A stretch of DNA of 49,189 nt, taken from a virus. Taxonomy: Duplodnaviria > Heunggongvirae > Uroviricota > Caudoviricetes. Both the position numbers and the translations under genes were made by a program. Below the pieces are notes generated by a model that saw only the letters and a list, made by a program, of their open reading frames with translations, did not search any database and was not told the DNA's origin. Below, piece by piece: positions 1 to 25,112 of the stretch; the stretch's first letter is position 1; every line of letters begins with the position of its first letter. The stretch lies in IMG/VR virus record IMGVR_UViG_3300045988_153230, one strand, 5' to 3'.

Positions 1-45
1 TTCAGCCAGGTTAAAGCCTCATCGCATGAGGACACACGATACTCA

Positions 46-168
46 TCATCGTAGCTCAGGTCCGTAAACCTGTAGCTTTTTCAAATCAGCCAAAACCTTT
101 TCCTGAAGAGCGTCTTCTTGCTCATTTAGCCAGTCGTCAAATCGCTGGCTAAAAAGTACCGTCCACAT
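46..168 (-). pseudogene. Truncated RelE/ParE-family (Gp49/HigB-type) toxin remnant
   Basis: ATG at 168..166 opens a frame MWTVLFSQRFDDWLNEQEDALQEKVLADLKKLQVYGPE whose DNA at 55..109 is identical to 49135..49189 (5' part of the toxin gene at the right edge). After the junction at ~55 the frame stops at 48..46. Positions 1..55 are identical to 48278..48332 (inside the 126-aa gene) but out of frame and without a start. Confidence 0.55.
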
Positions 169-412
169 GTTCAATCCTATAACCTGTAGTTTATATCACT
201 AACTATATAACCTGTGAGTTATAATTTCAAGAAAAACGGGGCTATTTAACATAATGGACGTTATCGGCACCACCGGATCACCGTTCATTGTCGGATCTAA
301 AAAATCCGCTCAAAAGATCATGTTTTCCTGGGCGTTTTCCACCGTTTTTTATGTTGCTTATTTGTTAATGAAATCTCGTTTTCAGTTTCGCCTCATTTTC
401 GACGCGAAAGCC

Positions 413-703
413 CTATTTTTGTGACTTTACTCCTGGCATATGGACTTCCCAGCGACGAATCCCCATAGCTGCGCAAAAATCAGCCACATAATTCAATCCC
501 GCCCATTCGCGGATACCACCACGGGCTTTTTCAATGAAAACGGCAATCCCTTTTTTATTGAGAGCAAAAAGCCGCCAGCTTTTTGTCACTTCGTCCTGGG
601 TAGCCACAACACAAGTGAAAGCTCCCATGCGATACAGGTCCAAGAACTCTTTGCGTGTTTTGCGTACAAGTTCCATAACAAACCTCATATTTGCATGTTT
701 CAA
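413..703 (-). CDS. Hypothetical small protein (likely start at internal Met, ~91 aa)
   Basis: 96-codon ORF overlapping by 4 nt with the upstream ORF 700..999, suggesting a two-gene operon. No family recognised. Confidence 0.4.
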   Translation of the reverse strand: MKHANMRFVMELVRKTRKEFLDLYRMGAFTCVVATQDEVTKSWRLFALNKKGIAVFIEKARGGIREWAGLNYVADFCAAMGIRRWEVHMPGVKSQK

Positions 704-999
704 ACATCTGTTTTGTTATCAATGAAGATTAACCCTAACCCAGCGAAGTAACACAGCAGCGCCCAGGCTGCATACGGAATGCTGGATCTGGATGTGGACT
801 CCTTTAACATCTGCCAATTGCGAACATTGCGACTATCTTTTAAGCCAAGTTTTTTGGCCAACTGCGAGCCGCTCATTCCGGTCAGGCCAATGACTGCCCG
901 AACTTCTCCACATGTAGGAGACTCCCATTCATCCGCTTTTTTTAAACAAGCCGGATTCAACATTTTTAAAACAGTATCTTTATCCATAACCATCTCCAT
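700..999 (-). CDS. Small protein with predicted helix-turn-helix and hydrophobic C-terminus
   Basis: Segment LTGMSGSQLAKKLGLKDSRNVRNWQ resembles an XRE-type HTH; C-terminal stretch IPYAAWALLCYFAGLGLIFI is hydrophobic. Operonic with 413..703. Confidence 0.4.
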   Translation of the reverse strand: MEMVMDKDTVLKMLNPACLKKADEWESPTCGEVRAVIGLTGMSGSQLAKKLGLKDSRNVRNWQMLKESTSRSSIPYAAWALLCYFAGLGLIFIDNKTDV

Positions 1000-1379
1000 T
1001 TATTATATCTACGATGGTAGGAAATCTTTTCCTATGTGGCAATAGAAATTTACTACATTGCGTATAAGACAACTTTTCTATGTCTAATAGGAAATGATGT
1101 TTCTTACGTTTTATCGCGTTCTGATGGCTACTGTGTGCGTATTTATCGACGTTTATTGATAAGGCTCCCCCTTCCTCCTGCAAAGCCCGGCCGTAGGCCT
1201 TATTTCGTCCTTATATAAATTGATTTTGTATAGTTCGAAACGCGCCGTTTCGAAAAGGATGATCAGGCTACTCCATACCTCCGGCAAGTGCCGGAGGAGG
1301 TATATTTGAGCGTAGCGACTCGAACCGGCGCGAGCTTTAGCTCGCTGCAAGGGCGAACATATTCACAGGCAAAGCCTGC

Positions 1380-1630
1380 GTAAGTTAAATAAAGAAAGTT
1401 TTAATAAAAGAAAGTGATTTTGCATTTATTTGTTTAGTGCATCTATTATAAAAAACCATTTGCATATACATATCAAAACTGTGGATAACTTGATTAGTTG
1501 ATACCTGTAAAGGCGATATTTTTGCTGAGTTCAGGTTTAGAGAAAATTAATTTAGCTTGTTTTTTGAACAGCTATTTTTTTGCGACGTAGATAATCCTCC
1601 GGTAAAACCGGATTCATCATTCAGGTGAGT
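1380..1630. other. Putative plasmid origin (oriR-like) downstream of repA
   Basis: ~250 bp AT-rich non-coding stretch immediately 3' of repA with a consensus DnaA box (TGTGGATAA, complement TTATCCACA) at 1480..1488. IncFII-type replicons place ori just downstream of repA. Confidence 0.5.
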
Positions 1631-2478
1631 TAATGTTGGAGTGATTTCCAGGTCTTTCTTAGCCTGTTATAACGCTGCTCAACGAGGGATCGTAAATATG
1701 CAAGGTCAGCACCAGGATACATGCCATCAGCAAATTCCTGGCTAACCTCTCTAGTGATTTGATGACGAAGTTCGGCCTCTCCCTTTTCCTGAACAAGACG
1801 CGCAGCTCTCTCCGCTGCTTTCTGTTTTGCCTTTATCTCTCTGGCCGTCTTCCTCTGACGCCATACATTCTCCATCTGCTCCTGAATAACAATACGCTTA
1901 TAATCAGCCTCCGTTATCGCTTTTTTAAGCCGTTCACTATTCTTCGCATTGAAGTAATTAAGTTTCTGGCTAACCGCACGTCTCCATGCTTGTTCAGTAA
2001 TACCAACGGTTTCCAGCAGTTGATCACGAATCTCTATTTTCGCTGGCCAATACTGTTTATTCACCCGATCCCAGCGACGTTCATAATCAATAAAACCTAA
2101 CGCTTTCAGTTGCGACAACGCCCTTGTACAGCGCGTTATAGACTTGTTCCCAGCTTCGGATACGGTAGACAGGCCGCAAAAATCAGCCAACGCCTCAGCA
2201 CTAGCCAGAACCCGCTTAGAAATGATGTTTACATGGTGCAAAATCGCAGCGATCACAGCATTAATCGCCCGACGACGATGCTCGTTTATCCGGCGCTTCC
2301 GCTCTGACGGTTGATTAACGTAGAACGCAACCTCACACGTAAGATCACGCCCATTAATGCGCTGTAAAGCATCAGATAACACCAGCGGCAGCTTGTGCGT
2401 ATGGTGCTTTGGAGGCTGGAACTCCGGCGACAAATTACAAACGTAAGCTGAACGTAGAGACGGCATTGGTCTATCCAT
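1630..2478 (-). CDS. repA: Plasmid replication initiator, IncFII RepA1-like
   Basis: Conserved core ...RRRAINAVIAAILHHVNI...FCGLSTVSEAGNKSITRCTRALSQLKALGFIDYE... and basic C-terminal region match my recollection of R100/R1 RepA1. ATG at 2478 chosen (MDRPMPSLRSAYV...); the ORF track extends to 2607 with no better start. Confidence 0.75.
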   Translation of the reverse strand: MDRPMPSLRSAYVCNLSPEFQPPKHHTHKLPLVLSDALQRINGRDLTCEVAFYVNQPSERKRRINEHRRRAINAVIAAILHHVNIISKRVLASAEALADFCGLSTVSEAGNKSITRCTRALSQLKALGFIDYERRWDRVNKQYWPAKIEIRDQLLETVGITEQAWRRAVSQKLNYFNAKNSERLKKAITEADYKRIVIQEQMENVWRQRKTAREIKAKQKAAERAARLVQEKGEAELRHQITREVSQEFADGMYPGADLAYLRSLVEQRYNRLRKTWKSLQH

Positions 2479-2522
2479 ATGTTCGCTCTTGCGTCCACGG
2501 AAAACCAACGTATAATGGGAGT

Positions 2523-2598
2523 TGTCGAGGCGCCCATGGTTAGTTGTTGGTTTTCCGTGGATGTCGCAAGAAGCCCGCAGATTTATCTGCGGGCTTTT
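2523..2598 (+). ncRNA. Candidate CopA-like antisense RNA to the repA leader
   Basis: Plus-strand promoter-like TTGCGT-N16-TATAAT (2489..2516) followed ~55 nt later by a perfect hairpin plus T-run (GCCCGCAGATTTATCTGCGGGCTTTTT, 2571..2598), antisense to the region just upstream of the repA start. A 16-bp inverted repeat (2490..2505 / 2545..2560) sits in the same region. Confidence 0.4.
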
Positions 2599-2643
2599 TG
2601 TTTCCATATCTGGTCACTTTCCAACCAGACACCCACAATCATA

Positions 2644-2658
2644 ACCACGTTACGTGGT
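2644..2658. promoter_or_regulatory. Operator-like palindrome ACCACGTTACGTGGT upstream of repA
   Basis: Perfect 7-1-7 palindrome of the same ACCAC-N5-GTGGT type as the sites flanking the CI-like repressor gene. Confidence 0.4.
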
Positions 2659-2788
2659 TTTAAGAGAACTCTACCACAACACTTTCGGTCATGCACGAAG
2701 TCTCTCACTGATCGAACGATAATCCACCAGTAAAAGGATCTAAATTGGATCTCGTTTTGCGAGCATCATACTACTGGCCTAACTCCAG

Positions 2789-3343
2789 TCAATGATTCCC
2801 AGCCGGAAACCTGCGGTAAAGCGTGGATAAGGTAACATCGAAGATAATCGCTATCCGCTTACGTGAAACACCATTCGCAATAAGCCTTCCGATCTGTTCC
2901 CATTGCTCTGGTGCCAGCTTTGAGCGACGTCCTCCTATCCTGCCGTTAGCCCTTGCCACCGCCAATCCTGCACGCGTTCTTTCAATCATATTTTCCCGCT
3001 CCATCTCTGCGACTGCACTCAGCATCGTGTAGGCAAAGCGGCCAATTGAAGTGCTGATTTTTATCCCTTCCGTAATTGAAATAAACTCAATGTCGTTTGA
3101 TAAAAAATGGTTAAGTAAATCAACAAGATGAATCAGAGAACGCCCCATTCGGTCCAGCTTCCAGACAATAACCGTATCGCCCGGTCGTAACACCTTCAGT
3201 AGCTTATCAAGTCCTGGTCGTTTTGATTTAGCACCGGATATTTTATCTTCAAAAATCCGGTCACATCCTGAACTCCTGAGCGCCTCCAGTTGTAATTCCA
3301 AATTCTGGTCAAAAGTTGACACCCTCGCATAACCATATTGCAT
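2789..3343 (-). CDS. Serine DNA invertase, Gin/Pin/Cin/Hin family
   Basis: 184 aa; N-terminal GYARVSTFDQ with catalytic Ser, and C-terminal ...GRIGGRRSKL...VTLSTLYRR HTH, closely resembling Mu Gin/e14 Pin as I recall them. Adjacent to an invertible tail-fibre segment. Confidence 0.9.
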   Translation of the reverse strand: MQYGYARVSTFDQNLELQLEALRSSGCDRIFEDKISGAKSKRPGLDKLLKVLRPGDTVIVWKLDRMGRSLIHLVDLLNHFLSNDIEFISITEGIKISTSIGRFAYTMLSAVAEMERENMIERTRAGLAVARANGRIGGRRSKLAPEQWEQIGRLIANGVSRKRIAIIFDVTLSTLYRRFPAGNH

Positions 3344-3407
3344 ACTTTCTAAACCGCGATTGTTGCTAAAAGCGGGAAAAAATATCGTTCAGACGACACA
3401 GAGGCAA

Positions 3408-3433
3408 TTCGCAAAAACCTCGGTTTACAGGAA
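3408..3433. repeat. gix-like recombination site, left end of invertible segment
   Basis: Reverse complement reads TTCCTGTAAACCGAGGTTTTTGCGAA, matching my recollection of Mu gix (TTCCTGTAAACCGAGGTTTTGGATAA) over its first 20 nt. Inverted relative to the site at 6461..6486. Confidence 0.8.
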
Positions 3434-4420
3434 ACGGTAAACAGGGCTGGTAACGCCGTGCAAAAAAATGGCGATACCTTGTCCGGTGGGCTTACTTTTG
3501 AAAATGACTCAATCCTTGCCTGGATTCGAAATACTGACTGGGCGAAGATTGGATTTAAAAATGATGCTGATGGTGACACTGATTCATACATGTGGTTTGA
3601 AACAGGCGACAACGGCAATGAATATTTCAAATGGAGAAGCAAACAAAGCACCACAACAAAGGACCTGATGAATCTTAAATGGGATGCTTTGTATGTTCTT
3701 GTTAAAGCTCTTTTCAGCAGTGAAGTAAAAATATCGACAGTCAATGCACTGAGGATATTTAATTCATCTTTTGGTGCTATTTTTCGCCGTTCTGAAGAAT
3801 GCCTTCATATCATCCCTACCCGAGAAAATGAGGGGGAAAATGGCGATATAGGGCCACTACGCCCCTTTACGCTTAATCTCAGAACTGGTCGCATAACTAT
3901 GGGGCATGGTCTGGATGTTACAGGAGATATATTTACAAACCGTTTTTTAATTAACAGCAGTACAGGCATGTGGATTAATATGCGTGACCAGAACGTTATT
4001 ATGGGACGTAATGCGGTATCCACTGATGGTGCTCAGGCTTTGCTCCGTCAGGACCATGCCGACCGCAAATTTATGATTGGCGGTCTGGGAAATAAGCAAT
4101 TTGGCATCTACATGATTAATAACTCAAGGACAGCCAATGGTACCGATGGTCAGGCGTACATGGATAATAACGGTAACTGGCTTTGTGGTGCGCAAGTTAT
4201 TCCCGGCAATTATGGCAATTTTGACTCACGCTATGTGAGAGATGTCCGACTTGGCACACGTGTTGTTCAATTGATGGCGCGTGGAGGGCGTTATGAAATA
4301 GCCGGACACGCACTTACCGGATTAAGAATTATTGGTGAAGTTGATGGCGATGATGAAGCTATCTTTAGGCCGATACAAAAATACATCAATGGCACATGGT
4401 ATAACGTCGCACAGGTGTAA
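3408..4420 (+). CDS. Alternative tail-fibre C-terminal segment (Sv'-like), silent in this orientation
   Basis: Frame is open through the gix site and encodes LGLQETVN, the same peptide encoded at the gix site inside the tail-fibre gene (EYLGLQETVN). No own start; the ORF track's start at 3458 is GTG. Followed directly by a Tfa paralog. Confidence 0.7.
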
Positions 4421-4951
4421 ATGATGCAGCATTTAAAAAATATTAAGTCTGGAAATCCTAAAACGAAAGAACAATATCAGCTAACAAAGAATTTTGATGT
4501 TATCTGGTTATGGTCCGAAGACGGTAAAAACTGGTATGAGGAAGTAAATAACTTTCAGGACGACACCATAAAGATTGTATACGACGAAAATAATATTATT
4601 GTTGCCATAACCAAAGATGCCTCAACGCTTAATCCCGAAGGCTTTAGTGTCGTTGAGATTCCAGATATAACAGCCAATCGTCGTGCCGATGATTCAGGGA
4701 AGTGGATGTTTAAGGATGGATCTGTAGTTAAACGGATTTATACGGCAGACGAACAGCAACAACAAGCCGAATCACAAAAGGCCGCATTGCTTTCCGAAGC
4801 TGAATCAGTCATCCAGCCGCTGGAACGCGCTGTCAGGTTGAATATGGCAACAGACGAGGAACGCACACGACTGGAAGCATGGGAACGCTACAGTGTTCTG
4901 GTCAGCCGTGTGGATACGGCAAATCCTGAATGGCCACAAAAGCCTGAATAA
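4421..4951 (+). CDS. Tail fibre assembly protein (Tfa/U'-like), alternative copy
   Basis: 176 aa; N-terminus [25 protein letters not shown]... is paralogous to the convergent ORF 4980..5513. Typical position after a tail-fibre C-terminal segment. Confidence 0.85.
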
Positions 4952-4956
4952 AAATT

Positions 4957-4976
4957 AAGGCCCGCTATCGGGCCTT
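4957..4976. terminator. Bidirectional hairpin between convergent Tfa genes
   Basis: AAGGCCCGCTATCGGGCCTT perfect stem-loop between the two convergent Tfa ORFs. Confidence 0.5.
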
Positions 4977-4979
4977 GTC

Positions 4980-5513
4980 TCATTCCGGTTTTTCTGGAAA
5001 CGTTACTGGCAGGATGGAGGTATCTGTAGATTCGACTTTCTGTGCATATAGCATCCACTCGGTTAATTTCTGTTTATTCTCATCGGAAATGATGCCCAGC
5101 CGTAGCTGTGAGTCCCACAGTTGGGTTTTATCCCTGACAAGTTGCAACAGGCTTTGCTTTTCATTCTCTGCCTGCTGCCTCTGTTCTTCCTCGGTGTAAG
5201 TTCGCTTTATCACTACGCCATCTTTGAACATCCATTTACCCGAAATATCAGCCCGGCGATTTGCTGTAATATCAGGTAATTCAACGACGCTTGCGCCTTC
5301 CGGATTAATTGCTGAAACATCCTTTTCAATACAAATAATAACGCCGTTACGGTCATAGACCATTTTCAATGTGTCTGGCTGGAAATTCTTTTGTTCCTCA
5401 TACCAGTTTTTTCCATCATCTGAATAAAGCCATTTGATGTTAAATTGCTTTGTTAGCTGGTATTGCTCTTTTGTTTTAGGGTTGCCAGCAGTAATGTTTT
5501 TTAAGTGCATCAT
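4980..5513 (-). CDS. Tail fibre assembly protein (Tfa/U-like), expressed copy
   Basis: 177 aa; [24 protein letters not shown]...; immediately downstream of the tail-fibre gene. Confidence 0.85.
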   Translation of the reverse strand: MMHLKNITAGNPKTKEQYQLTKQFNIKWLYSDDGKNWYEEQKNFQPDTLKMVYDRNGVIICIEKDVSAINPEGASVVELPDITANRRADISGKWMFKDGVVIKRTYTEEEQRQQAENEKQSLLQLVRDKTQLWDSQLRLGIISDENKQKLTEWMLYAQKVESTDTSILPVTFPEKPE

Positions 5514-5515
5514 CG

Positions 5516-7834
5516 TTAAATACTCCCCGCGTTATACCACGTCCCATTAATGCAATACTGAATTGGCCTTGCCTGAGTTGTATCAATTAATTCATCACGG
5601 TTTCCGTTAACTGAACCCGTAACGACATAACCTGACCTGTCAGACCAGCCGGGACCATTCCATGTCTGAACAGATGACAGACCGCCCAGGCGAATACCTG
5701 TAATAAACCTTGAGTTACATTCTGCCTGCGTATATGCACCAACATCCCCCGCAGAGGGTTTGCGGGTTGTGGTGTAAAACTCTGACCAGTTAGCTTCAAA
5801 GCCATAACCATCACGCGCTGAACGATAAAAGATACCGCCGTTCTTATAATTCACGCGGAACTGTACAGCAGGGCAACTCCCCGCATTCATATTAAAGTGG
5901 AGGATTAATGTCGATGCACCACTGATATCTGCATCATAAACACCGCTATTCCAGTTCCAGCCAACAGCTTTATCATTTGCAACCCTGCTTCCTGTTTGCC
6001 CTAAAGCAAATGCAGGCTGCTGGTTTTTCGTATTGTAGTCTCTTCGCCAGCCAGGAGCATAAGCATCACCATGATTAATATAAGTGAATTGAGCGTTAGT
6101 GATTCCGCCGCCGCTGGACGTACTCGGAGTAGTAACGCGTATGGTCATTGCGCCGCGAGTGCCAATAACTTCCACCACAGCACCTGCAAGACAAATATTT
6201 CCGCAACCTGTATCTGTAATGACCTTATTATTTGCATAAGCCCATGAGCCTTTGCACATCCAGTAAGGATGGTTAAATGCTCCCTGACTCTCCAGCCACG
6301 AAATAAATTGCGCGGTTGTCCAGACCTGACTATCGCCACCAATATTCAGCCATGGGCTGTATGCGCGGCAGGCACCAATATTTTTGGTGAAGGTATCTTT
6401 TCCTGGAATATCTGCGCCGTTCTGGTTTTTCTGTAATGCGCCAGAAGCCTGATTTACCGTTTCCTGCAAACCGAGGTATTCGATAACGGCAGCAACGGTC
6501 GATTTCGCAAGAATATCCCGCCCGACTTTTGTCAGGGTTGCCAGGCTGGCGACATCATTCCCCGTAAAATACGGAAACTTGTCTGCCGAAGTAGCAAGCC
6601 CGGCCAGCGCCGTCAGGGTGGCATCTTTCGGTTGCTTACCCGCAAGCGCGTTAGTCATGGTGGTCGCAAAATTCGGGTCGTTGCCCAACGCCGCAGCCAG
6701 CTCGTTTAGCGTATTCAGTGCGTCAGGCGACGAGTCCACGAGGGCAGCGATCGCAGCCATAACATAAGCCGTGCTTGCGATCTGAGTATTGTTAGTACCT
6801 TTTGGCGCAGTTGGTGTTGTTGGTGTTCCGGTCAGCGCAGGACTGTTTAAGGGCGCTTTCTTGTTCGTTTCATCCATTACCGCCTTAACAGCTTTTGGTG
6901 TCGCAGCCAGCGTTTCAGACGTGCTGTTAGTGGCACTACTGAGCTGAGTTATTCCCCTTACAGTCAGTGAAGCTACAGGCACATTTGTTATCTGCTCCCA
7001 CGAATGCGTGTGATTGGACGGAGCCTTTCCGGCCGCAAGATCATACGCTGCCTTAACAGCCTTTGGTGTTGCTGCTAGCGTTTCAGACGTGCTGTTGGTG
7101 GCACTACTGAGCTGAACAATCCCTTTTCGCGCTGTGGTAGCGTCCTGTGCGGTGTATTTAGCGTTAGCAAGGTCATATGCTGCCTTAACAGCCTTAGGCG
7201 TCGCAGCAAGCGTTTCAGACGCGCTATTGGTGGCGCTGCTAAGTTGAACAAAGCCTTTTGAGGTTAAAGTTGCATCAGGATGATTACGTGATTGCTCATG
7301 TTTCACAATGGCTTGCTTAAGCCGCTTTGCTGAAACAGCAAGGGAATCATCTGTACCTGCCTCAATTTCTTGTTCATTAGCAAATCTTGCCACCCCAACA
7401 ACAGTTTCGGTCGCGGGAGGATTAATAAACTCAATATCACCAAATGTAATATTTTTAGTATCAAGAGTCTTAATTGCTATATCACTTGATATTAAAGCGA
7501 TAGTAGATGATGCTTTATTTATTATTGCTTGTTCTTGTGAGTATACAGCAAACAACGCCCCCTTATTCGTATACAATCCTATTGTATGGACAACATACTC
7601 ATCTTTACTATCATCCTTCGCTGTTACATGAATTGTATCAGGGGAAACAACTTTGCCACCTATTGTGGTAAGTCGTTTTATTTCGTTTGTTATATTTGTT
7701 TGTGAGGTTGACGTGACATAATATCTACTACCTAAACCAACAGAAACAATCTCAACTTTATTTGTTCCTGTTTTGTTGGCATTAACCAACTCCTGACGCC
7801 CGGCGTCAGTCATCGTAAATAATAATTTACTCAC
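5516..7834 (-). CDS. Tail fibre protein (P2 gpH / Mu S-like), constant N-terminal part plus invertible C-terminal part
   Basis: 772 aa; N-terminus MSKLLFTMTDAGRQEL resembles P2 gpH N-terminus (first codon is GTG). Contains three ~70-bp internal repeats (about 6885..7250) and the gix site at 6461..6486 inside the coding sequence. Confidence 0.85.
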   Translation of the reverse strand: MSKLLFTMTDAGRQELVNANKTGTNKVEIVSVGLGSRYYVTSTSQTNITNEIKRLTTIGGKVVSPDTIHVTAKDDSKDEYVVHTIGLYTNKGALFAVYSQEQAIINKASSTIALISSDIAIKTLDTKNITFGDIEFINPPATETVVGVARFANEQEIEAGTDDSLAVSAKRLKQAIVKHEQSRNHPDATLTSKGFVQLSSATNSASETLAATPKAVKAAYDLANAKYTAQDATTARKGIVQLSSATNSTSETLAATPKAVKAAYDLAAGKAPSNHTHSWEQITNVPVASLTVRGITQLSSATNSTSETLAATPKAVKAVMDETNKKAPLNSPALTGTPTTPTAPKGTNNTQIASTAYVMAAIAALVDSSPDALNTLNELAAALGNDPNFATTMTNALAGKQPKDATLTALAGLATSADKFPYFTGNDVASLATLTKVGRDILAKSTVAAVIEYLGLQETVNQASGALQKNQNGADIPGKDTFTKNIGACRAYSPWLNIGGDSQVWTTAQFISWLESQGAFNHPYWMCKGSWAYANNKVITDTGCGNICLAGAVVEVIGTRGAMTIRVTTPSTSSGGGITNAQFTYINHGDAYAPGWRRDYNTKNQQPAFALGQTGSRVANDKAVGWNWNSGVYDADISGASTLILHFNMNAGSCPAVQFRVNYKNGGIFYRSARDGYGFEANWSEFYTTTRKPSAGDVGAYTQAECNSRFITGIRLGGLSSVQTWNGPGWSDRSGYVVTGSVNGNRDELIDTTQARPIQYCINGTWYNAGSI
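6461..6486. repeat. gix-like recombination site inside tail-fibre gene, right end of invertible segment
   Basis: TTCCTGCAAACCGAGGTATTCGATAA, near-identical core to the site at 3408..3433 in inverted orientation. Confidence 0.8.
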
Positions 7835-7864
7835 GCTTAATTCCTTGAATTAACAAATTGCGAA

Positions 7865-8446
7865 TTAGCACTCGCCAATTAATCGTACATAGGACACAGG
7901 CTGACAAGCACCAACAATACCAACACCACCAGAAACATTGGCAGCTTGCGAAAATGTAAATAATGTTCTTGCCGACTTTGCGCTCTTGATACTTCTTAAC
8001 GTATCTTCCAACATCTCTTTCGAAGGAACGGCACCATCAAAAGAGTTAATCGAAGCAACAATTGAGGCTGTATATGGTTCGCCAGGTGGTGATGTTTCAA
8101 ACCATTCTGTTATATTTACCTCTCCACCCAAGCTATTTACTACATCTTCAACCGCTGCCCTTGTACCCTTTATTCGCTTTGTTCGTATTATTGATTTAAA
8201 AACAGAACGCTTTAACGATACAGGCCAACTATCTCTCCATGTATCAGCATTCCATTGCCAAGCTAAATGATCGAGAACAACTGAGTCCAGGTTATCAACA
8301 ACACTATATATTTCTGTCTTATATATTAAATTGTTAATTGCTTGTAGTTCATCATCGATAGCTTTCGACATAGCTATCACGTTGGGATCTCTAGCTAAGT
8401 TAGGAGGTAAAACATCCAACAAGCTAACATTAAAGATATCAGCCAT
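7865..8446 (-). CDS. Phage tail protein I (P2 gpI-like)
   Basis: 193 aa beginning MADIFNVSLLDVLPPNLARDP..., positioned between baseplate J and the tail fibre as in P2. Confidence 0.7.
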   Translation of the reverse strand: MADIFNVSLLDVLPPNLARDPNVIAMSKAIDDELQAINNLIYKTEIYSVVDNLDSVVLDHLAWQWNADTWRDSWPVSLKRSVFKSIIRTKRIKGTRAAVEDVVNSLGGEVNITEWFETSPPGEPYTASIVASINSFDGAVPSKEMLEDTLRSIKSAKSARTLFTFSQAANVSGGVGIVGACQPVSYVRLIGEC

Positions 8447-9563
8447 CCTCTAACCCCGCATACTGGCAATTTATATTTCTCTCTCTGGCGACCTGCGTCT
8501 CTCCAACCACAGTAAATACAGGACTTGATATTTCTAATCTTTTAGCCCCAGCATTTTTTAAACGTTGAATAATTTCATCTGGATTTATATCTCTTCCCAT
8601 AACCGAACGTTGCCATTGTTTATACTCATCAATAGCTTTCTCAACCTCACTTTGAATTAAAGTTGTTCTGTTTTTGTCCGATGAGTTAATCCAGTATTTA
8701 ATTATTATATCGTATTCAATGCTCTCTGGTTTCTTAACAAGAACTTTATCTGTGAATGGTCGAATATTAGTTGCAGAGAGAACGCTATTTATCTGCTCTA
8801 ATAGTTCATCAGAAGGTATATCTCCGTTCTCTAACAAAGAACGGATTTCTACAGTTCCGGGCGATGGTGTATATACATTCACATCTTTTATATTCTGATT
8901 GGCTGTTCTTGTCCAATATTTATAAGAATCCTCCGGCCCTGCTGTAGACAGTTTTTCCGGCGACAGTTTTATTCTTTCAGCATAATTATCATCTGACTCT
9001 GTATCAGCACCAGAATTAGATGTTGTTAGATTCCTTACGCTGGAAACATACGGCAACGGAGTCACCAACTCGTTTATTTGCCCAGGTAAAAAGCCATTCC
9101 CCGATAAGCCAGGTATAACAGCATATCCTGAGACTGTACCAACTGTTTTCCCAGCTGGTATTTCCAACAAAACATCTGTTTGGAAAATAACACTATTTCC
9201 AGTTGAAATTTGAGTGCCAGCAGGTATTGTATATATCCCCGATAATTTTGTTGACAGCTTAAACTCAAATGTAGTCAAGGCAGATTGAGCTTCCAGCCTA
9301 GGCGTATCCGTCAGATAGCCTATATGGTCGAGATATTCACCCCCACCATATGTAAGAAGGTTTTGTTTTGCAGAAAAATCGATAGCTTTTCTTTGCTGTA
9401 TAATAATCTCACACAATGACAAGATGAATAATCTACGTGGATCAGCAGGTGCTAATGTTTCACCTGTTATACTCTCAAAAGCCCTGATTGAACGAGTTGT
9501 TATATCAGTCGGGTTAGAATCTGCGAAAGTAATATCTGGCAAACCACCACGCGGCAACGTCAT
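8439..9563 (-). CDS. Baseplate protein J-like
   Basis: 374 aa, size and position (between W and I) as for P2 gpJ / T4 gp6-type baseplate wedge proteins. Confidence 0.7.
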   Translation of the reverse strand: MTLPRGGLPDITFADSNPTDITTRSIRAFESITGETLAPADPRRLFILSLCEIIIQQRKAIDFSAKQNLLTYGGGEYLDHIGYLTDTPRLEAQSALTTFEFKLSTKLSGIYTIPAGTQISTGNSVIFQTDVLLEIPAGKTVGTVSGYAVIPGLSGNGFLPGQINELVTPLPYVSSVRNLTTSNSGADTESDDNYAERIKLSPEKLSTAGPEDSYKYWTRTANQNIKDVNVYTPSPGTVEIRSLLENGDIPSDELLEQINSVLSATNIRPFTDKVLVKKPESIEYDIIIKYWINSSDKNRTTLIQSEVEKAIDEYKQWQRSVMGRDINPDEIIQRLKNAGAKRLEISSPVFTVVGETQVARERNINCQYAGLEDG

Positions 9564-9880
9564 TCTCTAACTCCTATCACAAGTTTTGGCCTAATAAAAC
9601 CATCAGAAACGTCCGTTCTTTCAAAAGTAACAGAATGGATAATCGCTCTAGGCTCAAACTCACTAATTTTTTGAATTATTTCTCGTGTTGCTGTAGCAAT
9701 AAAAATTGGACTGGGGCTATCAACAAGACTTGAATTAACTCCTAATTTTCTGGCATATGGTACAGTGCCAATCTGAGTATTAATAATAGTAGAGACATTT
9801 TGCAAAACTTCTTCTACAACTGTTTTGGGCGACCAATCAATCGAGTAAGAAGGTGATGATATGGTAAACGTATTATTCAT
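9560..9880 (-). CDS. Baseplate protein W (GPW/gp25-like)
   Basis: 106 aa, overlapping start/stop with neighbours, position upstream of J. Confidence 0.65.
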   Translation of the reverse strand: MNNTFTISSPSYSIDWSPKTVVEEVLQNVSTIINTQIGTVPYARKLGVNSSLVDSPSPIFIATATREIIQKISEFEPRAIIHSVTFERTDVSDGFIRPKLVIGVRE

Positions 9881-10344
9881 AATAATTTACCTAACGCACT
9901 TCTAGTTTTTGACTCTATATTGCCAGCAATATCAACTAATGCTTCTTTCAGAGAGGTCTGTCCGACTTCCTGTAATTTAATGCCGACGATAATCACTCGC
10001 GGATTCCCAGTTGGACCGAAATAAGTCCATGATTCCTCTATATCTGTAATTATAAAATTACCAAAATACTGAATACCAATTACAACAGGATTTACTTCCT
10101 GAATTGATTGCATTGTCCTAAGTAATGAAAGCGCAGCCAATGGAACAATGCCAAGTGTTGTATCCAACCGCATATTAAAACTAACTTCATCCAGATCTGG
10201 ACCTATATCCTCCAGAACAGGTTTAAGCCCAATAACATCATGGCGCGCTACACGACGCTTTGACGTCCTTTTAAAATTGTTGAACGTATTCACTACTATT
10301 GATGAGGCAACAAAAGGCATTGTACCAAGCATACCCACAATCAT
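9877..10344 (-). CDS. Phage tail protein, gpU-like (tentative)
   Basis: 155 aa; N-terminal MIVGMLGTMPFV... and overall size resemble P2 gpU as I recall it; the Mu gp46 family is an alternative. Confidence 0.45.
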   Translation of the reverse strand: MIVGMLGTMPFVASSIVVNTFNNFKRTSKRRVARHDVIGLKPVLEDIGPDLDEVSFNMRLDTTLGIVPLAALSLLRTMQSIQEVNPVVIGIQYFGNFIITDIEESWTYFGPTGNPRVIIVGIKLQEVGQTSLKEALVDIAGNIESKTRSALGKLL

Positions 10345-10961
10345 GCCTGAGCCTCCGTTGTCGAAGCGTATTCCCCCTGAGCTGTGTGATGGTGGCCTTT
10401 AGATTTAATCCCATCAACATCTATATCACCACCAACAACCTTAACATTCCCAGAAATTGTAGCTGCAACACCTCCAGCAGAAGATCCTTTCATTCCACCT
10501 TTGAAGGTTAGTAATCCTTCAACTGTAGCATTTCCGGTAATGATGGTTTCTGGAGCATCAATAGTTACGGTTCCTGTAGCCTTAACGGTTACATCTCCGA
10601 CAGCATCAACAAGGAGTAAATTAGATTCTCTGTCTATCTCAATACGAGTTCCGTTATTAAATCTAATGACGCGTTTATTAACAGTATTAGATGGCGGCTT
10701 CTGTGTTTCATCATAAAAACTACCAAGAATAAAACCTTGTTGCGGCCCTGCGGGATGAAAGATACACAAAACTTGCTCACCAATATCTGGCATCCAGTAA
10801 TCAGCATTCTTATCTGTATTTTTCACAATAACTGATAACTTTGCCGAAGTGACGTTATCCTGATCATCGAAAGTAACTCTTGCTGTAACATCACCATCAT
10901 CAATATCAGAAACAACGCCAACTCTTATAGTCTGACGTAATAATGTTTCTAAATCATTCAT
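10341..10961 (-). CDS. Baseplate assembly protein V / spike
   Basis: 206 aa with Gly-rich repetitive C-terminus (VTVKATGTVTIDAPETIITGNATVEG...) typical of gpV-type spike proteins. Confidence 0.7.
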   Translation of the reverse strand: MNDLETLLRQTIRVGVVSDIDDGDVTARVTFDDQDNVTSAKLSVIVKNTDKNADYWMPDIGEQVLCIFHPAGPQQGFILGSFYDETQKPPSNTVNKRVIRFNNGTRIEIDRESNLLLVDAVGDVTVKATGTVTIDAPETIITGNATVEGLLTFKGGMKGSSAGGVAATISGNVKVVGGDIDVDGIKSKGHHHTAQGEYASTTEAQA

Positions 10962-10963
10962 AA

Positions 10964-11965
10964 TTAATACCCATTAATTACTCTTCGGACATCAATCGAG
11001 GTGGTATAACCACTAGCCCCAATTGAATGCACAGCTTTCGATATAAGATATTTTCCAGAAAATAAACCGAATCCGTCCAGATTTATAGTTACACCAGCTA
11101 CCAATCTGGTGTCTCCAACCAATACTAAAGATCCGGTATTTTGATATCTATTTTTAAGCCGCAAAGCAGCCTTTGCCTTACGTTTTGCTTCATCTAAATT
11201 AGCTACCAGTTTTCTTATCTTAAGATTCGACCCTTCTTCTACGGATGGATCTACCCAAGTATACGAAAGCGACTTTCTTTTTTTAGGTACGCGATATTTG
11301 CACGTGCAACTTTTATACAAATCTGTAGATTGTGTGCTAAAGCTATATCTGATTATCTCATCAATACCTAACGTAAGCGTAGCGATAGGATCTTTTTGCT
11401 CAAACATCTCTTGAGCAAATATTATTAATTGGCTATCAGTGACCTTTAACGACAACCCTTCATCCTGGCAAAGTCGATGGAGAAATTTTAAATCGCTTTC
11501 CTCCATTTGATCTTCACGCGCATAATATGGATTACTATCACCATCAATAAGAAACAACAGTTCAAGGTTAGCTAATTTAGCTATAGAAGTTGCTATATCT
11601 TTAAGAGTTGTTTTTTCCCATGCATTACTTTTTAAATCACGTCTAATGCCTGATGAAACAGGAACAGAAACAGCAGTTACCTCAACAACAGAAGGTGGTC
11701 CAGAGCAAGTTATGCCATCTACCTGGAATTTCCCGCACTCAAGGACGATTTGATTTATAGGCTTAAAGCTCAAATCAATAAAATCACCCTTTTTAGGTGT
11801 CCAGTCTCCAGACCATTTCCCATCATCATTTTTTAATATAATAGAAATATCATCGACCTGACCATCTTCATTATCTGTATAAGACATTGACAAAACATCA
11901 GGTGACATATGAGCGGTAATATTTACATTCTGATATATAACATCAAAAAGCGTTTTACGTAACAC
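10964..11965 (-). CDS. Tail protein D (Phage_GPD family)
   Basis: 333 aa; ...TLKDIATSIAKLANLELLFLIDGDSNPYYAREDQMEESDLKFLHRLCQDEGLSLKV... fits the gpD late-control/tail protein pattern. Confidence 0.7.
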   Translation of the reverse strand: MLRKTLFDVIYQNVNITAHMSPDVLSMSYTDNEDGQVDDISIILKNDDGKWSGDWTPKKGDFIDLSFKPINQIVLECGKFQVDGITCSGPPSVVEVTAVSVPVSSGIRRDLKSNAWEKTTLKDIATSIAKLANLELLFLIDGDSNPYYAREDQMEESDLKFLHRLCQDEGLSLKVTDSQLIIFAQEMFEQKDPIATLTLGIDEIIRYSFSTQSTDLYKSCTCKYRVPKKRKSLSYTWVDPSVEEGSNLKIRKLVANLDEAKRKAKAALRLKNRYQNTGSLVLVGDTRLVAGVTINLDGFGLFSGKYLISKAVHSIGASGYTTSIDVRRVINGY

Positions 11966-12173
11966 TGTTGCGTCTCCACGGAGGCAAATTGTTTACTGAT
12001 ATTGGCATAACCGGAGCATCAGGAACTTTAAGAATAATTCCCGCAGAAAAAAGCACCGTAAAGCGGTGCTCAGTATTAGCATCAATAAGAAGATAAGACA
12101 GGTACTCATTACCATACAACTTTAACGCGATACTATCCCATGAGTCCCCTTGAACCGTTCTATAATCATCCAA
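11955..12173 (-). CDS. Tail protein X (LysM-like, P2 gpX-like)
   Basis: 72 aa; YRTVQGDSWDSIALKLYGNE...LIDAN...ILKVPD matches the gpX/LysM pattern. Confidence 0.65.
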   Translation of the reverse strand: MDDYRTVQGDSWDSIALKLYGNEYLSYLLIDANTEHRFTVLFSAGIILKVPDAPVMPISVNNLPPWRRNSVT

Positions 12174-14958
12174 AACTTAATCTCCGTTGTTGGAACATAT
12201 GAGCACTCAATTTCTTCTCAAAATCAGAATATCCCGCATCTAATGCTCTTTTAGCTGCCGCCTCAGTTTCCTTTGGTGAACCAGCCGGAAGATTGATTAC
12301 AGGTGAATAGGTTATTCCACCAGTCACAGCGTTAACGTTCTGGCGAGTTCCAGAAGTCCCGGCGGCAGATATCCCGTGAGGTGATAAATTTGATTGCCCG
12401 AACTTGGTTGCTATTGCATTCTGTAAGCTGTTATTCCTGCTAACACCTGATGCCAGAGTAGTCATTATTGCACCCCCTGACTTTGTTAGCTGTGTGAATG
12501 GACCTTTTTTCGCGTCAGAGAACGGTAAATACTCACGTACAGAAGAAAAAACGCCTTTCACTTCATTAATTAAAGCATTTGCTTTTGATTTTATCCCAGT
12601 GATTAACGTCTCAATTATTTTTGCACCTGACTCACTCCAGTTTATTCCAGATAAATAAGCCGTTACAGATTGGAATGCTCTTATAAAGAGTCCAACTGGT
12701 GAAAAACGCATAAAAACAGACACCAGTGTATCTATGATTTTCTTTCCTGTTTCGCTCCAGTTAATGCCAGAAAGGTAATTTGTTGTAAGTTTAAATGCTT
12801 TAATTAAGAACGGAAGCGGAGACATCCATTTAAAAGCACTAATTAATGTACTGTAAATTCTTACTCCTGCCGAACTCCAGTTTATGTTGGAAAGATAATC
12901 CCATGCTTTACCAAACATAGATATAATCCATCCATTGAGATCAAAGTTTAAGATAAAGTTTTTTATAGCTTCAAACGATTTAACTGTATATTCCTTAACA
13001 GAAGGCCAAACTCTGACAGCATAATCTCTGATCTTATCCCAGTTCTGATAGAGCAATATTCCTGCGGCAACCAGCGCAGATATAGCCATCTGAATCCACC
13101 CGAAGGGTGTTAGCTTTGTCGCTACAGATAAAGCCAGCATAGCTACCCTACACGCTATAACCACACTTTTCATGGTTAGAAACGCACCTGCCGCCATCAC
13201 AATCTGAGACACAAAATTGGGGTTGTTAGCTACAAATTCACTAATTTTTGTAATCAGCGGAACCAAAACACTAAGCGCGGCATTCAAAGCAGGTTGCAAG
13301 GCCTGACCAAAACTTAATGATGCATTGCTAGCCTGAATACGTAATTGTTTCAATCGCTCCGCATTGTCTTTCGTTATGTTGGCAAAATCGCGGTCAATAA
13401 CAGCACTTCCAGCACCAAGAGATGTTGCTTTGATTCTCTGGTATTCCTTCCAGTTTTGAATCATCGGACGAACAAAGTTCTGAACCTGCATATCGCCAAA
13501 TAGCTCACCAAGTAACTTCTGATCTCCGTTCTTAGTCATTTTCATGACAGAATGCATTGCAGCTTCGAATGGATTCTTCCCTTTTTTCTGCGCTGTTGTG
13601 ACAATTTTATATAAATCTACACCGAAATTTTTCTTTGCTTTTTTTAGCGTTTCAGGGGAAAGTATTTTCGCCAAAAAGTTGTTCATATTATTAGCAGCCT
13701 CATCCGAAGTTGCAGCACCTTTGCGAGCTATCTGCAAAGCTGCCCCCATCGTCGCGGCGGCTTCTTTACCTCCCATTTTTAATGCCTGGAACTGGGCACC
13801 AAGCACAGGAAGATTTTTGGCCATATCTTTAAATTCAAAGTTTCCCTCTTTCCCTGCCTGAACCAGAATCCCCATTGCAGACTTCATTTGAGATGGATCA
13901 ATCTTCAATGAGTCACTTAATGTAAATGATGCTTTCGAGACATCGAGGATATCAGAGCCAGTAGCTGTAGCTGTTCGCCCAATAGTTAGTAGATTCGCCT
14001 GAGCCTCTTTATAATCCTGCCCAGCAGCGACGAGAAAACCCTGAGCGGCCTGAATATCAGATGCAAACTGGTTGGTAGCCGTTCCGGTAACAAGCATCGC
14101 CTGCCCCATCGCCTGAACTTCTTCCGGCTTCATATCTGCCGTAAGACCAATCATTTTGTTTTCACGATTGAAATTTGCTGCATTGTTAGCAGCAGCAAAT
14201 GCACCAGCCGCTACAGCACCAGTTTGTAATCCTGACCTTACAAGTTGACTCTTTGCCTCACCAAGATGCTCTCGCTTCAATTCACGCTGCCTTTCCAACG
14301 CGCGGTTTAACTCCTCCTGAGCACGTTTTACTGCAAGAACATTTTTCCGTGCTTCAGCCAACGCATTTTTATAGCTGTTAATTTTATCAATACGTTGTTT
14401 TTCTAATGCCCGGTTAAGTTCCTCCTGCTGTTTTTTCACTTGCTGAACATTTGCTCTGGCTAAAGCCAAAGCCGTTCTGTAGCGGTTAACCTGCTCAACG
14501 CTACGGGCCTGAGCCTCACGATTACGATCAATGCTGGCTTTAAGTTCTTTCTCTCTTGAGGCCAAAGCTCTGGCAGATGTATCAGCTCCCTGATAGGCAG
14601 ACTTTAAAGCGGCCAGTTCTTCACGCTGAGAACGTAGTGATGCTCGTAAATTCGATGAATGTGTTTTTGCCTTCTCAAAGTCACGAAGCATCGCTCTGGT
14701 TGGATTGGCCGTGTTTTTTATTTGCTTCTGTAACTCTTCAACGCGAGCGGCAGCTTTATGATATTCGAGGGCAGTCTGTCCAACCTTTACTTTTACAGAT
14801 TGTAGCTTTTGAATTTCCCCATGTTCTTTCGTTAATCCAGCAAGCTCGGCATTTAATTTAGCAACAGCCTGATTAGCTGTAGTAAAACTTTTGGGGAGAG
14901 AGGCGGCAACTTTGCCGCCAATTTCAAAAGCCAGCTTAAAGTTCTTATTGCTGGCCAT
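12166..14958 (-). CDS. Tail tape measure protein
   Basis: 930 aa, Ala/Gln-rich coiled-coil repeats (two near-duplicate ...QQVKKQQEELNRALEKQR... segments) and C-terminal hydrophobic segments, downstream of the E/E' chaperones. Confidence 0.85.
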   Translation of the reverse strand: MASNKNFKLAFEIGGKVAASLPKSFTTANQAVAKLNAELAGLTKEHGEIQKLQSVKVKVGQTALEYHKAAARVEELQKQIKNTANPTRAMLRDFEKAKTHSSNLRASLRSQREELAALKSAYQGADTSARALASREKELKASIDRNREAQARSVEQVNRYRTALALARANVQQVKKQQEELNRALEKQRIDKINSYKNALAEARKNVLAVKRAQEELNRALERQRELKREHLGEAKSQLVRSGLQTGAVAAGAFAAANNAANFNRENKMIGLTADMKPEEVQAMGQAMLVTGTATNQFASDIQAAQGFLVAAGQDYKEAQANLLTIGRTATATGSDILDVSKASFTLSDSLKIDPSQMKSAMGILVQAGKEGNFEFKDMAKNLPVLGAQFQALKMGGKEAAATMGAALQIARKGAATSDEAANNMNNFLAKILSPETLKKAKKNFGVDLYKIVTTAQKKGKNPFEAAMHSVMKMTKNGDQKLLGELFGDMQVQNFVRPMIQNWKEYQRIKATSLGAGSAVIDRDFANITKDNAERLKQLRIQASNASLSFGQALQPALNAALSVLVPLITKISEFVANNPNFVSQIVMAAGAFLTMKSVVIACRVAMLALSVATKLTPFGWIQMAISALVAAGILLYQNWDKIRDYAVRVWPSVKEYTVKSFEAIKNFILNFDLNGWIISMFGKAWDYLSNINWSSAGVRIYSTLISAFKWMSPLPFLIKAFKLTTNYLSGINWSETGKKIIDTLVSVFMRFSPVGLFIRAFQSVTAYLSGINWSESGAKIIETLITGIKSKANALINEVKGVFSSVREYLPFSDAKKGPFTQLTKSGGAIMTTLASGVSRNNSLQNAIATKFGQSNLSPHGISAAGTSGTRQNVNAVTGGITYSPVINLPAGSPKETEAAAKRALDAGYSDFEKKLSAHMFQQRRLSFG

Positions 14959-14963
14959 TAGTA

Positions 14964-15146
14964 TTAATCCTCATTAAACACATCAATCCATGCGACAATT
15001 CGCCTCAACCGAAGCGAAAGCCAGTAGGATATAGGTGTTGATTGAGATGATTGAGATAGAGAACTCGCGGCTCTCATTATTTGCTTATCAATAGGTTTTT
15101 GCTCATCAAAACCTACGAGAGCAAAAAATTCTGTACCTTTTGGCAA
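14964..15146 (-). CDS. Tail assembly chaperone E' extension, reached by -1 frameshift from gpE
   Basis: ORF overlaps the 3' end of gpE in the -1 frame; slippery heptamer TTTTTTG (minus strand, 15128..15122) lies within the overlap, as in P2 E/E'. Confidence 0.65.
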   Translation of the reverse strand: MPKGTEFFALVGFDEQKPIDKQIMRAASSLSQSSQSTPISYWLSLRLRRIVAWIDVFNED

Positions 15147-15394
15147 ACTTTAACAAAGTCTTTCGCTGGCAATCCATTCAGATACTCTATCGGACGGCCA
15201 ATACAGCGAGCAGCCAGAGCAACGTGGACTTTATGATCAAGTGATGTTTGAACTGTAACATGCCCTTGAGATTGCAGTAAGTCCGATACTTCTAAAATAT
15301 CGCTGCCTTTTAGGTTGTCTAAATCAAGGTTGAGTTCAGTCACCGGCTCGAAGTCTTCAAAACGATACTCTTTACTTAATTTAACGGTTTCCAT
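15113..15394 (-). CDS. Tail assembly chaperone gpE-like
   Basis: 93 aa between tail tube and tape measure genes, with a downstream overlapping -1 frame ORF. Confidence 0.7.
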   Translation of the reverse strand: METVKLSKEYRFEDFEPVTELNLDLDNLKGSDILEVSDLLQSQGHVTVQTSLDHKVHVALAARCIGRPIEYLNGLPAKDFVKVCQKVQNFLLS

Positions 15395-15403
15395 TTTGTC
15401 ACC

Positions 15404-15925
15404 TTATAAACCTAAATCATCACGAACGCTTTTTAATATATCTTCACCATCGAAGATACAAATAAAGTTCAATTTATCAATTTCCAGGACTTCTTTTCCA
15501 TCAATAAATAATTTGATATAGAGAACTTCAAATTCATTCTCTGAATCAGTAGCCTTTGCCACCTGTAGCGAACCTAAATCCAGTTTTTTAGGGTTTAGCT
15601 TCATTGAAGCCCGAATGGGAACCGTTTTATATTTCCCTGTTCCGGCATCATAAACCTGCTGGCTACCACGAAAATCTACCTGATGCGATGAGGATAGAAA
15701 TAATTTTGCACCAGCAGAGGTTAGGGTTCGCCATTTAAGAGAGACGGTCATTGGTTTGAAATGCCCCAGCGTTCCGCTCTCAAGCTCTCCAGCAATACCT
15801 GCACCACTAACTGTCTCTGTCATCATCTCGATTGATGGCAGCTTTGCGTCAGCAACACCGATAATACGGTTTCCCTCACCGTATACTGTAAAGTTAATAA
15901 GTCTCTCAGGAATTTGATTGCTCAA
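15404..15925 (-). CDS. Tail tube protein (FII-like)
   Basis: 173 aa directly downstream of the sheath gene. Confidence 0.7.
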   Translation of the reverse strand: MSNQIPERLINFTVYGEGNRIIGVADAKLPSIEMMTETVSGAGIAGELESGTLGHFKPMTVSLKWRTLTSAGAKLFLSSSHQVDFRGSQQVYDAGTGKYKTVPIRASMKLNPKKLDLGSLQVAKATDSENEFEVLYIKLFIDGKEVLEIDKLNFICIFDGEDILKSVRDDLGL

Positions 15926-15941
15926 AGCAACCTCCTATTAT

Positions 15942-17405
15942 TTATTCAGAAAACAAGTTCAGCAGATAATCAGGATTATATTCCATGACGAACTCTATAT
16001 CTCTGGCAGGTGAGAATGGTGTCATTTTTACATGGAATTTAACAATCCCGTCCATCAATGACGTAATCGTGTTTTCAGACTGATCAAAGGTAACAACACC
16101 ACCTGCAATATCCTGATTACCTGTGAGGCCGTTAAGCCAAATATTCGCACTTGTAACAATCGATTCAATTAATCGACGGTTTGCAGGATTGTCTATTTTT
16201 GACCAATGCGAAAGAATTAACGTATTACCCACCCAGTTAAACATACGTCGGCAAACACGAAATGCGTCTTTGGGGTCTGTAGATGTTGGATAAATAGCAT
16301 TACGGTTTCCCCATGATTTCCAACCATCAAAATTAAGGCTTGTTACAATCCCCTGTCCATTTAAGTAGTTTGCCTGGCTAATGTTAAGCCATACTTCACT
16401 GCCATCTTTACGTACAGCACCGTCCATCTGTAGTTTTATATTTGACGGAGAACGTGATGGAATATCACCATACTGACTATCCAGCAAGCATGTTGCGGCC
16501 GCTAAATGGGTTGAGTGATGGTAAATATTGTCACCAAGTTTCACCATCGGCCAGCACACTGTCTGGTTAGCGGCCATGTGATTATTGTTCTGTTTCCATT
16601 CAGGAACAGCCGAGTAATCACTGATAGTAGATTTATCGGTCGGCGCATCCGTTATAGCTTCTGCTTTGAACAATTCACTAATCAGCGCGGCTTTAGCCGC
16701 CATTAGCTGACCAACTTCACTATCAGAACTAAATCCAGGTGCAATCACTTGTCCAGGAACTAACTTGAAGCGGGGATACACATCTGACAGTAACTCAAGC
16801 CCTGTATTGGCTTTAGTGTTGGAATCCACACCACCGATAATGTCATTTTTAGTTACGGCACCGGGATCAAGATGTGTATAACTAACCTTAAGAGTAGCGT
16901 CTTTTTCGGTAATTTTTCCTCCGCTAATAGCTGTAATGACCGTATAGCCATTATCATCCAGCGCCAGCACATAATCGGTATCAACCGTTAACCCAGGCGA
17001 ATCACCATCTGCTTTTTTCACAACAACAGATTTATATAAGACACCATCGTTAGAGAGCGTACCTTTCCCGCCAGAAAGTTTTACTAACTCATCAGTAACG
17101 TCTTTCTTATGCTTTGCTGGATCAAGCACATTGATAAATACAACTGGCGCAACACCATATATTCCAAATGCGACTTTAATTACTTCGCTTAAAGTATATT
17201 TCTCGAAGTTTGTGCTATATCCTATTTTAGATACGGCCTCTGCGTATGTATAAGCAATGATAGGTTTATTTACCGCTGAGGCTGGATCTTCTAACTGATT
17301 AACAGGAGCCGTACCAAATGCGACAATCAACCCAGCACTAACTTGCACTGGAGGAGTTATAGATGTAGCCAGCTCAGATATATAAATACCGTGGCGATAT
17401 CCCAT
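15942..17405 (-). CDS. Contractile tail sheath protein (FI-like)
   Basis: 487 aa, size and position upstream of the tube gene. Confidence 0.75.
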   Translation of the reverse strand: MGYRHGIYISELATSITPPVQVSAGLIVAFGTAPVNQLEDPASAVNKPIIAYTYAEAVSKIGYSTNFEKYTLSEVIKVAFGIYGVAPVVFINVLDPAKHKKDVTDELVKLSGGKGTLSNDGVLYKSVVVKKADGDSPGLTVDTDYVLALDDNGYTVITAISGGKITEKDATLKVSYTHLDPGAVTKNDIIGGVDSNTKANTGLELLSDVYPRFKLVPGQVIAPGFSSDSEVGQLMAAKAALISELFKAEAITDAPTDKSTISDYSAVPEWKQNNNHMAANQTVCWPMVKLGDNIYHHSTHLAAATCLLDSQYGDIPSRSPSNIKLQMDGAVRKDGSEVWLNISQANYLNGQGIVTSLNFDGWKSWGNRNAIYPTSTDPKDAFRVCRRMFNWVGNTLILSHWSKIDNPANRRLIESIVTSANIWLNGLTGNQDIAGGVVTFDQSENTITSLMDGIVKFHVKMTPFSPARDIEFVMEYNPDYLLNLFSE

Positions 17406-17695
17406 TATTTAATCTCCATGATAGAAGAAGAAACTCTAGAGTACATTACATACTCGACACTGGTTTTATCAGAAAGTCTTTTCTCTGCATCTGCAAAATC
17501 ACTGGTTGCCACAAACAAACACTTTGCACCAGGAATATGTGATATTAATTTTTTACACTCTGGAGATAAGCCATTCTTAAATAGTTTATGCTTCAAAATT
17601 GAGAGTTGAGGGATTGTTGGTCCTATATATACAAATGTTTGAGCAACATCTTCCTTCTTTTCTATATCTTCTTTACTACTTTTCTTATTAGCCAT
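17405..17695 (-). CDS. Hypothetical protein between head and tail modules
   Basis: 96-codon ORF with start/stop overlap to neighbours. Confidence 0.4.
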   Translation of the reverse strand: MANKKSSKEDIEKKEDVAQTFVYIGPTIPQLSILKHKLFKNGLSPECKKLISHIPGAKCLFVATSDFADAEKRLSDKTSVEYVMYSRVSSSIMEIK

Positions 17696-19958: not shown

Positions 19959-19978
19959 AAAAATACGACCTCTTTATA

Positions 19979-20362: not shown

Positions 20363-20371
20363 AAACTCACC

Positions 20372-23239: not shown

Positions 23240-23250
23240 TTATATTTCCT

Positions 23251-25107: not shown

Positions 25108-25112
25108 GAGGT

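Follow-up and report, generated by a model that had tools for sequence, protein, structure and literature searches.

The window, as the whole 49,189-nt stretch of DNA analyzed here is called, is very probably a single short-read contig that was assembled at k = 55 from a circular E. coli phage-plasmid present as a mixture of 49,080-bp and 48,277-bp monomers. Its composite start is a known way for an assembly to represent an ordinary deletion polymorphism, here in a phage-plasmid family that is itself known, and does not constitute a new structure. The two alleles, one with an intact toxin-antitoxin locus and one from which 803 bp are missing, would co-exist as separate monomers.

Window ends and the assembly graph

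The first 109 positions of the window consist of two exact copies of right-end sequence. Reading of the ends, a repeat finder, and a string test all returned a 55-nt block at 1-55 that is 100% identical to 48278-48332 and a second at 55-109 that is 100% identical to 49135-49189 (repeat families D5 and D6); the two blocks overlap by a single C at position 55. Both identities had been noted by eye in a first-pass annotation of this DNA, and they proved to be exact over 55 nt and incapable of extension, a further base breaking either match (1-56 differs from 48278-48333, and 54-109 from 49134-49189). Two exact 55-mers in 49 kb cannot have originated by chance. The same annotation held that the left copy lacks a segment of the right end, which is correct, and gave the size of that segment as 802 bp; the missing length is 803 bp (802 plus one of two Cs) because the shared C is counted once. 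The segments and units concerned are as follows, in window coordinates.

1..109: junction edge of the short allele, copying 48278-48332 and 49135-49189 with the C at 55 in common
48333..49135 (equivalently 48332-49134, one C being shared): segment exclusive to the long allele, 803 bp
110..49189: full 49,080-bp unit carrying the long (ancestral) allele, from a direct-repeat spacing of 49,080 (repeat family D5)
56..48332: full unit with the short (deletion) allele, 48,277 bp, derived from the junction and from the arithmetic of scaffold_191 (see below)

Three edges account for the window, namely a short arm at 1-109 (109 nt), a backbone at 55-48332 (48,278 nt), and a long arm at 48278-49189 (912 nt), and with their 55-nt overlaps they add up exactly (109 + 48,278 + 912 - 2 x 55 = 49,189). 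Exact and non-extendable 55-nt repeats are the signature of a path through a de Bruijn graph of k = 55, and the end repeats match this k-mer length to the base. SPAdes and metaSPAdes use 55 as their default final k, and one of these, ending at that k, is most likely to have been the assembler. In the proposed mechanism, the two alleles would give rise to a bubble on a circular assembly graph, with the 55-mer at 48278-48332 as one vertex (A) and the 55-mer at 49135-49189, which equals 55-109, as the other (B). The long arm (48278-49189) would stand for the intact toxin-antitoxin locus and the short arm (1-109) for the deletion junction, and the path emitted by the assembler would have led from the short arm through the backbone into the long arm. 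Its output would comprise a full 49,080-bp unit, the 55-nt circular overlap, and, on the left, 54 extra bases of the deletion allele; the window resolves into one unit of that length, a k-mer overlap of 55 nt, and 54 nt from the deletion-allele edge.

Contigs with a circular k-mer overlap or an indel bubble, as produced by SPAdes and metaSPAdes, resemble the window in that the terminal repeat is exactly k, three edges are joined by k-nt overlaps, the alternative arm is a clean indel, and the element is circular. The usual signature of circularity is a contig whose first and last k-mers are identical, whereas in the window the 109-nt alternative arm has been taken and the overlap is shifted inward by 54 nt, counted from the left end.

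Subtracting the redundancy from the window leaves 49,080 bp, the unit length of this circular replicon. A locus from ENA assembly ERZ19664697 (L018), assembled with MEGAHIT at k119 and flagged as circular (flag_3), has a length of 49,199, which is 49,080 + 119. Its identity to the window is 100% over positions 35235-49189, a range that includes the long arm, and one real SNP lies within 51-7336; this SNP, at window position 6113 (G in the window, T in L018), is the sole real difference across the 21 kb compared, indicating that at least two assemblies contain what is essentially a single plasmid clone. The earlier suggestion of a structurally heterogeneous circular sequence, of which the window would cover more than one unit, was well founded, the element being a circular phage-plasmid whose deletion junction recurs inside two other assemblies. 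The window is best read as a circular genome of 49,080 bp, with the 803-bp deletion allele minor or co-existing, and bases 1-109 are redundant and should be trimmed before annotation, before calls on length or completeness, and before any discussion of termini.

The phage-plasmid and its toxin-antitoxin locus

Approximately 100 E. coli complete genomes matched the window by megablast at 98-99% identity, the matches being circular plasmids of ~47-50 kb, and three Yersinia phage isolates, vB_YpM_39/41/44 (OR545053-55; 49,027-49,128 bp), matched as well; relatives in PLSDB are circular. Loci 100% identical to the window encode an IncFII-type RepA (IncFII_repA) and a ParA/CbiA ATPase, a terminase-to-tail myovirus module with tail tube, tape measure, baseplate, and tail-fibre proteins together with holin and endolysin, as well as a Gin/Cin-type invertase, the latter beside alternative tail-fibre ends. 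Plasmid replication and partition genes are thus combined with a full phage structural module, at 98-99% identity to known members, which makes the element a phage-plasmid; it is a well-sampled circular replicon of E. coli, ~48-49 kb in size. The E. coli and Yersinia phage-plasmids of this size (NZ_CP009073.1 from ATCC 25922, NZ_CP009861.1 from ECONIH1, and vB_YpM_39/41/44) are 98-99% identical to the window over the compared regions and have the same gene set, including the IncFII-type RepA, ParA, the myovirus tail, an invertible tail-fibre segment, and the toxin-antitoxin pair; however, none of them has the 803-bp deletion, and small insertions and mosaic blocks differ. A literature search for a family name for this group yielded only the unrelated pO111 and P1-like plasmids. 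Among the relatives L005, L011, and L014, some carry a beta-lactamase gene with Tn3-family transposase and resolvase genes inserted near the toxin-antitoxin/HTH region, so that this phage-plasmid family is also a vector of antibiotic resistance.

The invertible tail-fibre segment occupies window positions 2789-7834 and includes the following elements.

2789-3343, minus strand: Gin/Cin-type serine invertase
3414-3468 and 6426-6480: gix-like inverted repeats, 55 nt

This segment also contains two genes for alternative fibre C termini and two for tail-fibre assembly; it aligned in the opposite orientation in the relatives L019-L021, and a differently fused fibre of 934 aa is encoded in L016. Tandem-like repeats occur within two of the structural genes: the 772-aa tail-fibre gene contains three 93-nt units (6867-7259; 77-84% identical to the reference copy), and three 45-nt units with a spacing of 120 nt lie in the 930-aa tape-measure gene (12617-12901).

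The deletion falls in and around a toxin-antitoxin locus that, in the window, is split across the circle junction. Its features and those of its neighbours are these.

48901..49189 and 168..110, minus strand: 115-aa Gp49/HigB2-like toxin of the RelE/ParE family, by reconstruction (3' 289 nt and, across the circle junction, first 59 nt)
48602..48901, minus strand: 99-aa HTH (Xre-type) antitoxin, with HTH_3 and HTH_37 above cut-off and a 1-nt overlap with the toxin stop codon
48565..48587, minus strand: intrinsic-terminator-like hairpin and T-run, just downstream of the antitoxin and within the deleted segment
202..230, minus strand: promoter-like site of the toxin-antitoxin operon (TTGAAA-17-TATAGT), a consensus match of putative function that is kept in both alleles
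48435..48554: third copy (copy 3) of a 120-nt repeat that resembles a promoter/5' leader; it stops at the ATG of the 126-aa gene and is absent from the short allele
48058..48438, minus strand: 126-aa gene that matched no family; the short allele lacks its promoter and first 106 nt
46..168, minus strand: stub ORF of 40 codons (toxin codons 1-38, Leu, Arg, stop)

Residues 12-105 of the toxin match the Pfam family Gp49 (PF05973) with an E-value of 5.4e-23 and 81.3 bits (cut-off 23.9), placing it in this family, and its RefSeq label is RelE/ParE family toxin; a PDB sequence search with the toxin gave no match, and the NCBIfam match did not reach its cut-off. The adjoining gene for a small DNA-binding antitoxin is co-oriented with it in a single operon arrangement, and the 115-aa/99-aa pair is accordingly predicted, from sequence, to be a type II toxin-antitoxin module. 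With the known type II modules that pair a HigB2/Gp49 toxin with an Xre-HTH antitoxin it shares the toxin-first order, the PF05973 match, and the 1-nt overlap with an HTH_3/HTH_37 antitoxin; like them, it is carried by a plasmid-like replicon of low copy number, where it neighbours repA. It departs from these modules in that the short allele has the module destroyed.

Two near-identical 17-nt motifs, ATAACCTGTAGTTTATA and ATAACCTGTGAGTTATA, lie upstream of the toxin gene, within window positions 170-230, where they overlap the promoter-like site; they plausibly represent the antitoxin operator. The 120-nt unit is present in three copies that are 92-98% identical (31263-31382, 38335-38454, and 48435-48554; repeat family D2), each of which ends at the ATG of a minus-strand gene, encoding 73 aa, a 355-aa DUF3560 protein, and 126 aa, respectively. 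Every copy contains an AT-rich array with 8-nt periodicity that is TTATATAA-like (repeat family D1), and arrays of a similar type are also found at 32.5, 37.2, 42.2, and 43.0 kb. The 120-nt copies and the AT-rich arrays look like a shared set of regulated promoters and operators of the phage-plasmid. In loci L006, L013, L039, and L046 (CP050217.1 and CP050218.1, 6.6-7.0 Mb), a block extending from RepA to the antitoxin and another from the 126-aa gene to the antirepressor are located at separate places, and the homology breaks off within the intergenic 120-nt repeat region, suggesting that a mosaic or recombination boundary is situated there.

Recurrence and origin of the deletion junction

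The junction, searched as a 46-nt pattern, is internal to the 25-kb IMG/VR contig 3300045988_168891 (L001), where its flanks of 964 and 2,421 nt are 100% identical to the window. The intact left boundary, used as a pattern against IMG/VR, matched only two contigs, both short and non-identical. Human faecal samples were, according to one paper, the material from which another UViG of the 3300045988 dataset was co-assembled; no paper mentioning SAMEA4431876 came up in a full-text search. When the 40-aa stub ORF was looked up by exact sequence, it led to scaffold_191 in ENA (L004/L015/L022; 63,485 bp, sample SAMEA4431876), in which the stub is called as a gene and from which each of five fetched pieces is 100% identical to the window. 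In window coordinates this scaffold proceeds from 4520 to 110, from 49189 to 48333 (the long arm), from 48332 to 56, and then, across the short junction, from 48332 to 38393; the segments sum exactly (4411 + 857 + 48,277 + 9,940 = 63,485), and in the pass through the long arm the toxin, the antitoxin, and the 126-aa gene are all intact. This path and its exact sum make scaffold_191 a second assembly with both alleles in series. Other assemblies contain the bubble arms as well, scaffold_191 having both and 3300045988_168891 the short one.

Megablast of window positions 1-330 did not find the junction in E. coli complete genomes (111 matching records) or in PLSDB (145 records), every match beginning at query base 51. 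A scan for the exact junction in GTDB representative genomes and JGI metagenome contigs returned none, indicating that the allele is not widespread. Collinearity with the long allele was seen in some 30 related loci, which differ only by other small insertions. The absence of the junction from relatives, together with this collinearity, points to the long form as ancestral and to the deletion as recent and strain-specific. L017, in which the 126-aa gene seemed to be missing, was considered as a second independent deletion and rejected, since it is collinear and shows small indels only.

Microhomology at the breakpoints amounts to 1 nt. Direct and inverted local alignment of the breakpoints ±60 nt gave best scores within the null distribution and revealed no invertase-type site. 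Deletion mediated by repeats or by the invertase was rejected on this evidence, and the short allele probably originated at the single shared nucleotide, through replication slippage or through illegitimate recombination that is not site-specific.

A microhomology of this size would also be expected of a chimeric library fragment. It is nonetheless unlikely that the 54 extra bases are a pure artefact of such fragments, or of a mis-join, with no real molecule behind the 803-bp deletion. The junction is missing from all isolate genomes and plasmids searched, and the three assemblies that bear it, including the window, are 100% identical and may share reads, so that their agreement speaks for reproducibility across assemblies rather than for independent biology. 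A de Bruijn graph, however, needs each of the 54 junction (k+1)-mers to be present in the reads; in at least two other assemblies the junction is internal, with kilobases of flank; and the points that it joins have the same orientation and lie 803 bp apart on one replicon, while chimeras are expected to join random partners. A repeated junction with kilobase flanks, between co-oriented points so close together on a single replicon, is far more likely to be a real deletion than a chimera. The serial arrangement of long and short alleles in both the window and scaffold_191 is, in turn, the correct path for a heterodimer or tandem concatemer of ~97.4 kb, in which an intact and a deleted unit would share one molecule and the window would have been read partly across a unit boundary. 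Yet an identical path is what any bubble on a circular graph generically yields; the close relatives exist as monomers, 47-50 kb in size, and L018 too closes as a monomer, of 49,080 bp. A mixed monomer population is the simpler reading, and a heterodimer is very unlikely.

Two further accounts are terminal redundancy and programmed excision. The presence of terminase, portal, and tail genes, and the proximity to isolated Yersinia phages, would be compatible with a linear packaged genome that has genuine terminal redundancy, its left copy bearing a deletion scar, as the first-pass annotation had offered for consideration. The window ends are not identical, though: positions 1-55 match 48278-48332 and not the last 55 nt, and the 55-nt repeat is displaced by 54 nt and of a standard k-mer size. 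Moreover, the related phage records (49,027-49,128 bp) align across the window ends, and the circular plasmid relatives, which are closed circles, are uninterrupted at that point, leaving terminal duplication extremely unlikely. Programmed site-specific excision of the module, for example by a Gin/Cin-type invertase acting on pseudo-sites, is highly improbable. The serine invertase gene (2789-3343) and gix-like inverted repeats are situated ~3 kb away, and, close to the right breakpoint, the heptamer GTAAACC looks by eye like part of the repeat core; but the breakpoints have no repeats and no crossover dinucleotide in common, the same deletion occurs in no relative examined, and deletion is strongly disfavoured by Gin/Cin-type invertases, as is well established.

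Consequences of the deletion

In a mixed population of 49,080-bp and 48,277-bp monomers, the reading preferred here, the short allele has lost the antitoxin in its entirety, codons 39-115 of the toxin, the terminator, and the 120-nt repeat, and its 126-aa gene lacks the first 35 codons. The parts that the first-pass annotation listed as missing agree with this, namely the 3' portion of the toxin, all of the antitoxin, the third 120-nt copy, and the 5' end of the 126-aa gene. The toxin stub that it described is also present, although its 39 codons need amending to an ORF of 40 codons, of which 38 are toxin-derived; the Leu codon of the stub belongs to foreign sequence and equals toxin residue 39 by coincidence. 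The 126-aa gene persists as an 84-aa remnant with a GTG start, which lies 10 nt past the double stop of the stub and is called at 10134-10388 in L004. This remnant could, speculatively, be transcribed from the promoter-like site that the short allele has kept (230..202), now without the presumed autorepressor.

The loss of an antitoxin with retention of toxin sequence had been singled out as biologically notable, which is misleading: the same deletion also truncates the toxin, of whose 115 residues only the first 38 are left, whereas the Gp49 domain extends over residues 12-105, so that the concern over a toxin without its antitoxin does not apply. Toxin activity has presumably been lost from the short allele. 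Under the proposed mechanism, cells with the deletion variant would survive because toxin and antitoxin were lost together, and joint loss is the expected viable route by which a toxin-antitoxin module is shed.

That the deletion is an adaptive variant rising in one gut population, and not a neutral accident, seems very doubtful. If it were so, a derepressed promoter, with the terminator gone, would drive transcription through the 40-codon stub into the GTG-started 84-aa remnant, the remnant would stand outside the normal repeat-associated phage control, and the phage-plasmid would be rid of an addiction module. The finding describes a within-sample polymorphism in which a toxin-antitoxin module and a neighbouring gene have been knocked out in a common E. 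coli phage-plasmid. It adds a small datum on the loss of addiction modules, in which toxin and antitoxin go together, by a mechanism that is not new.
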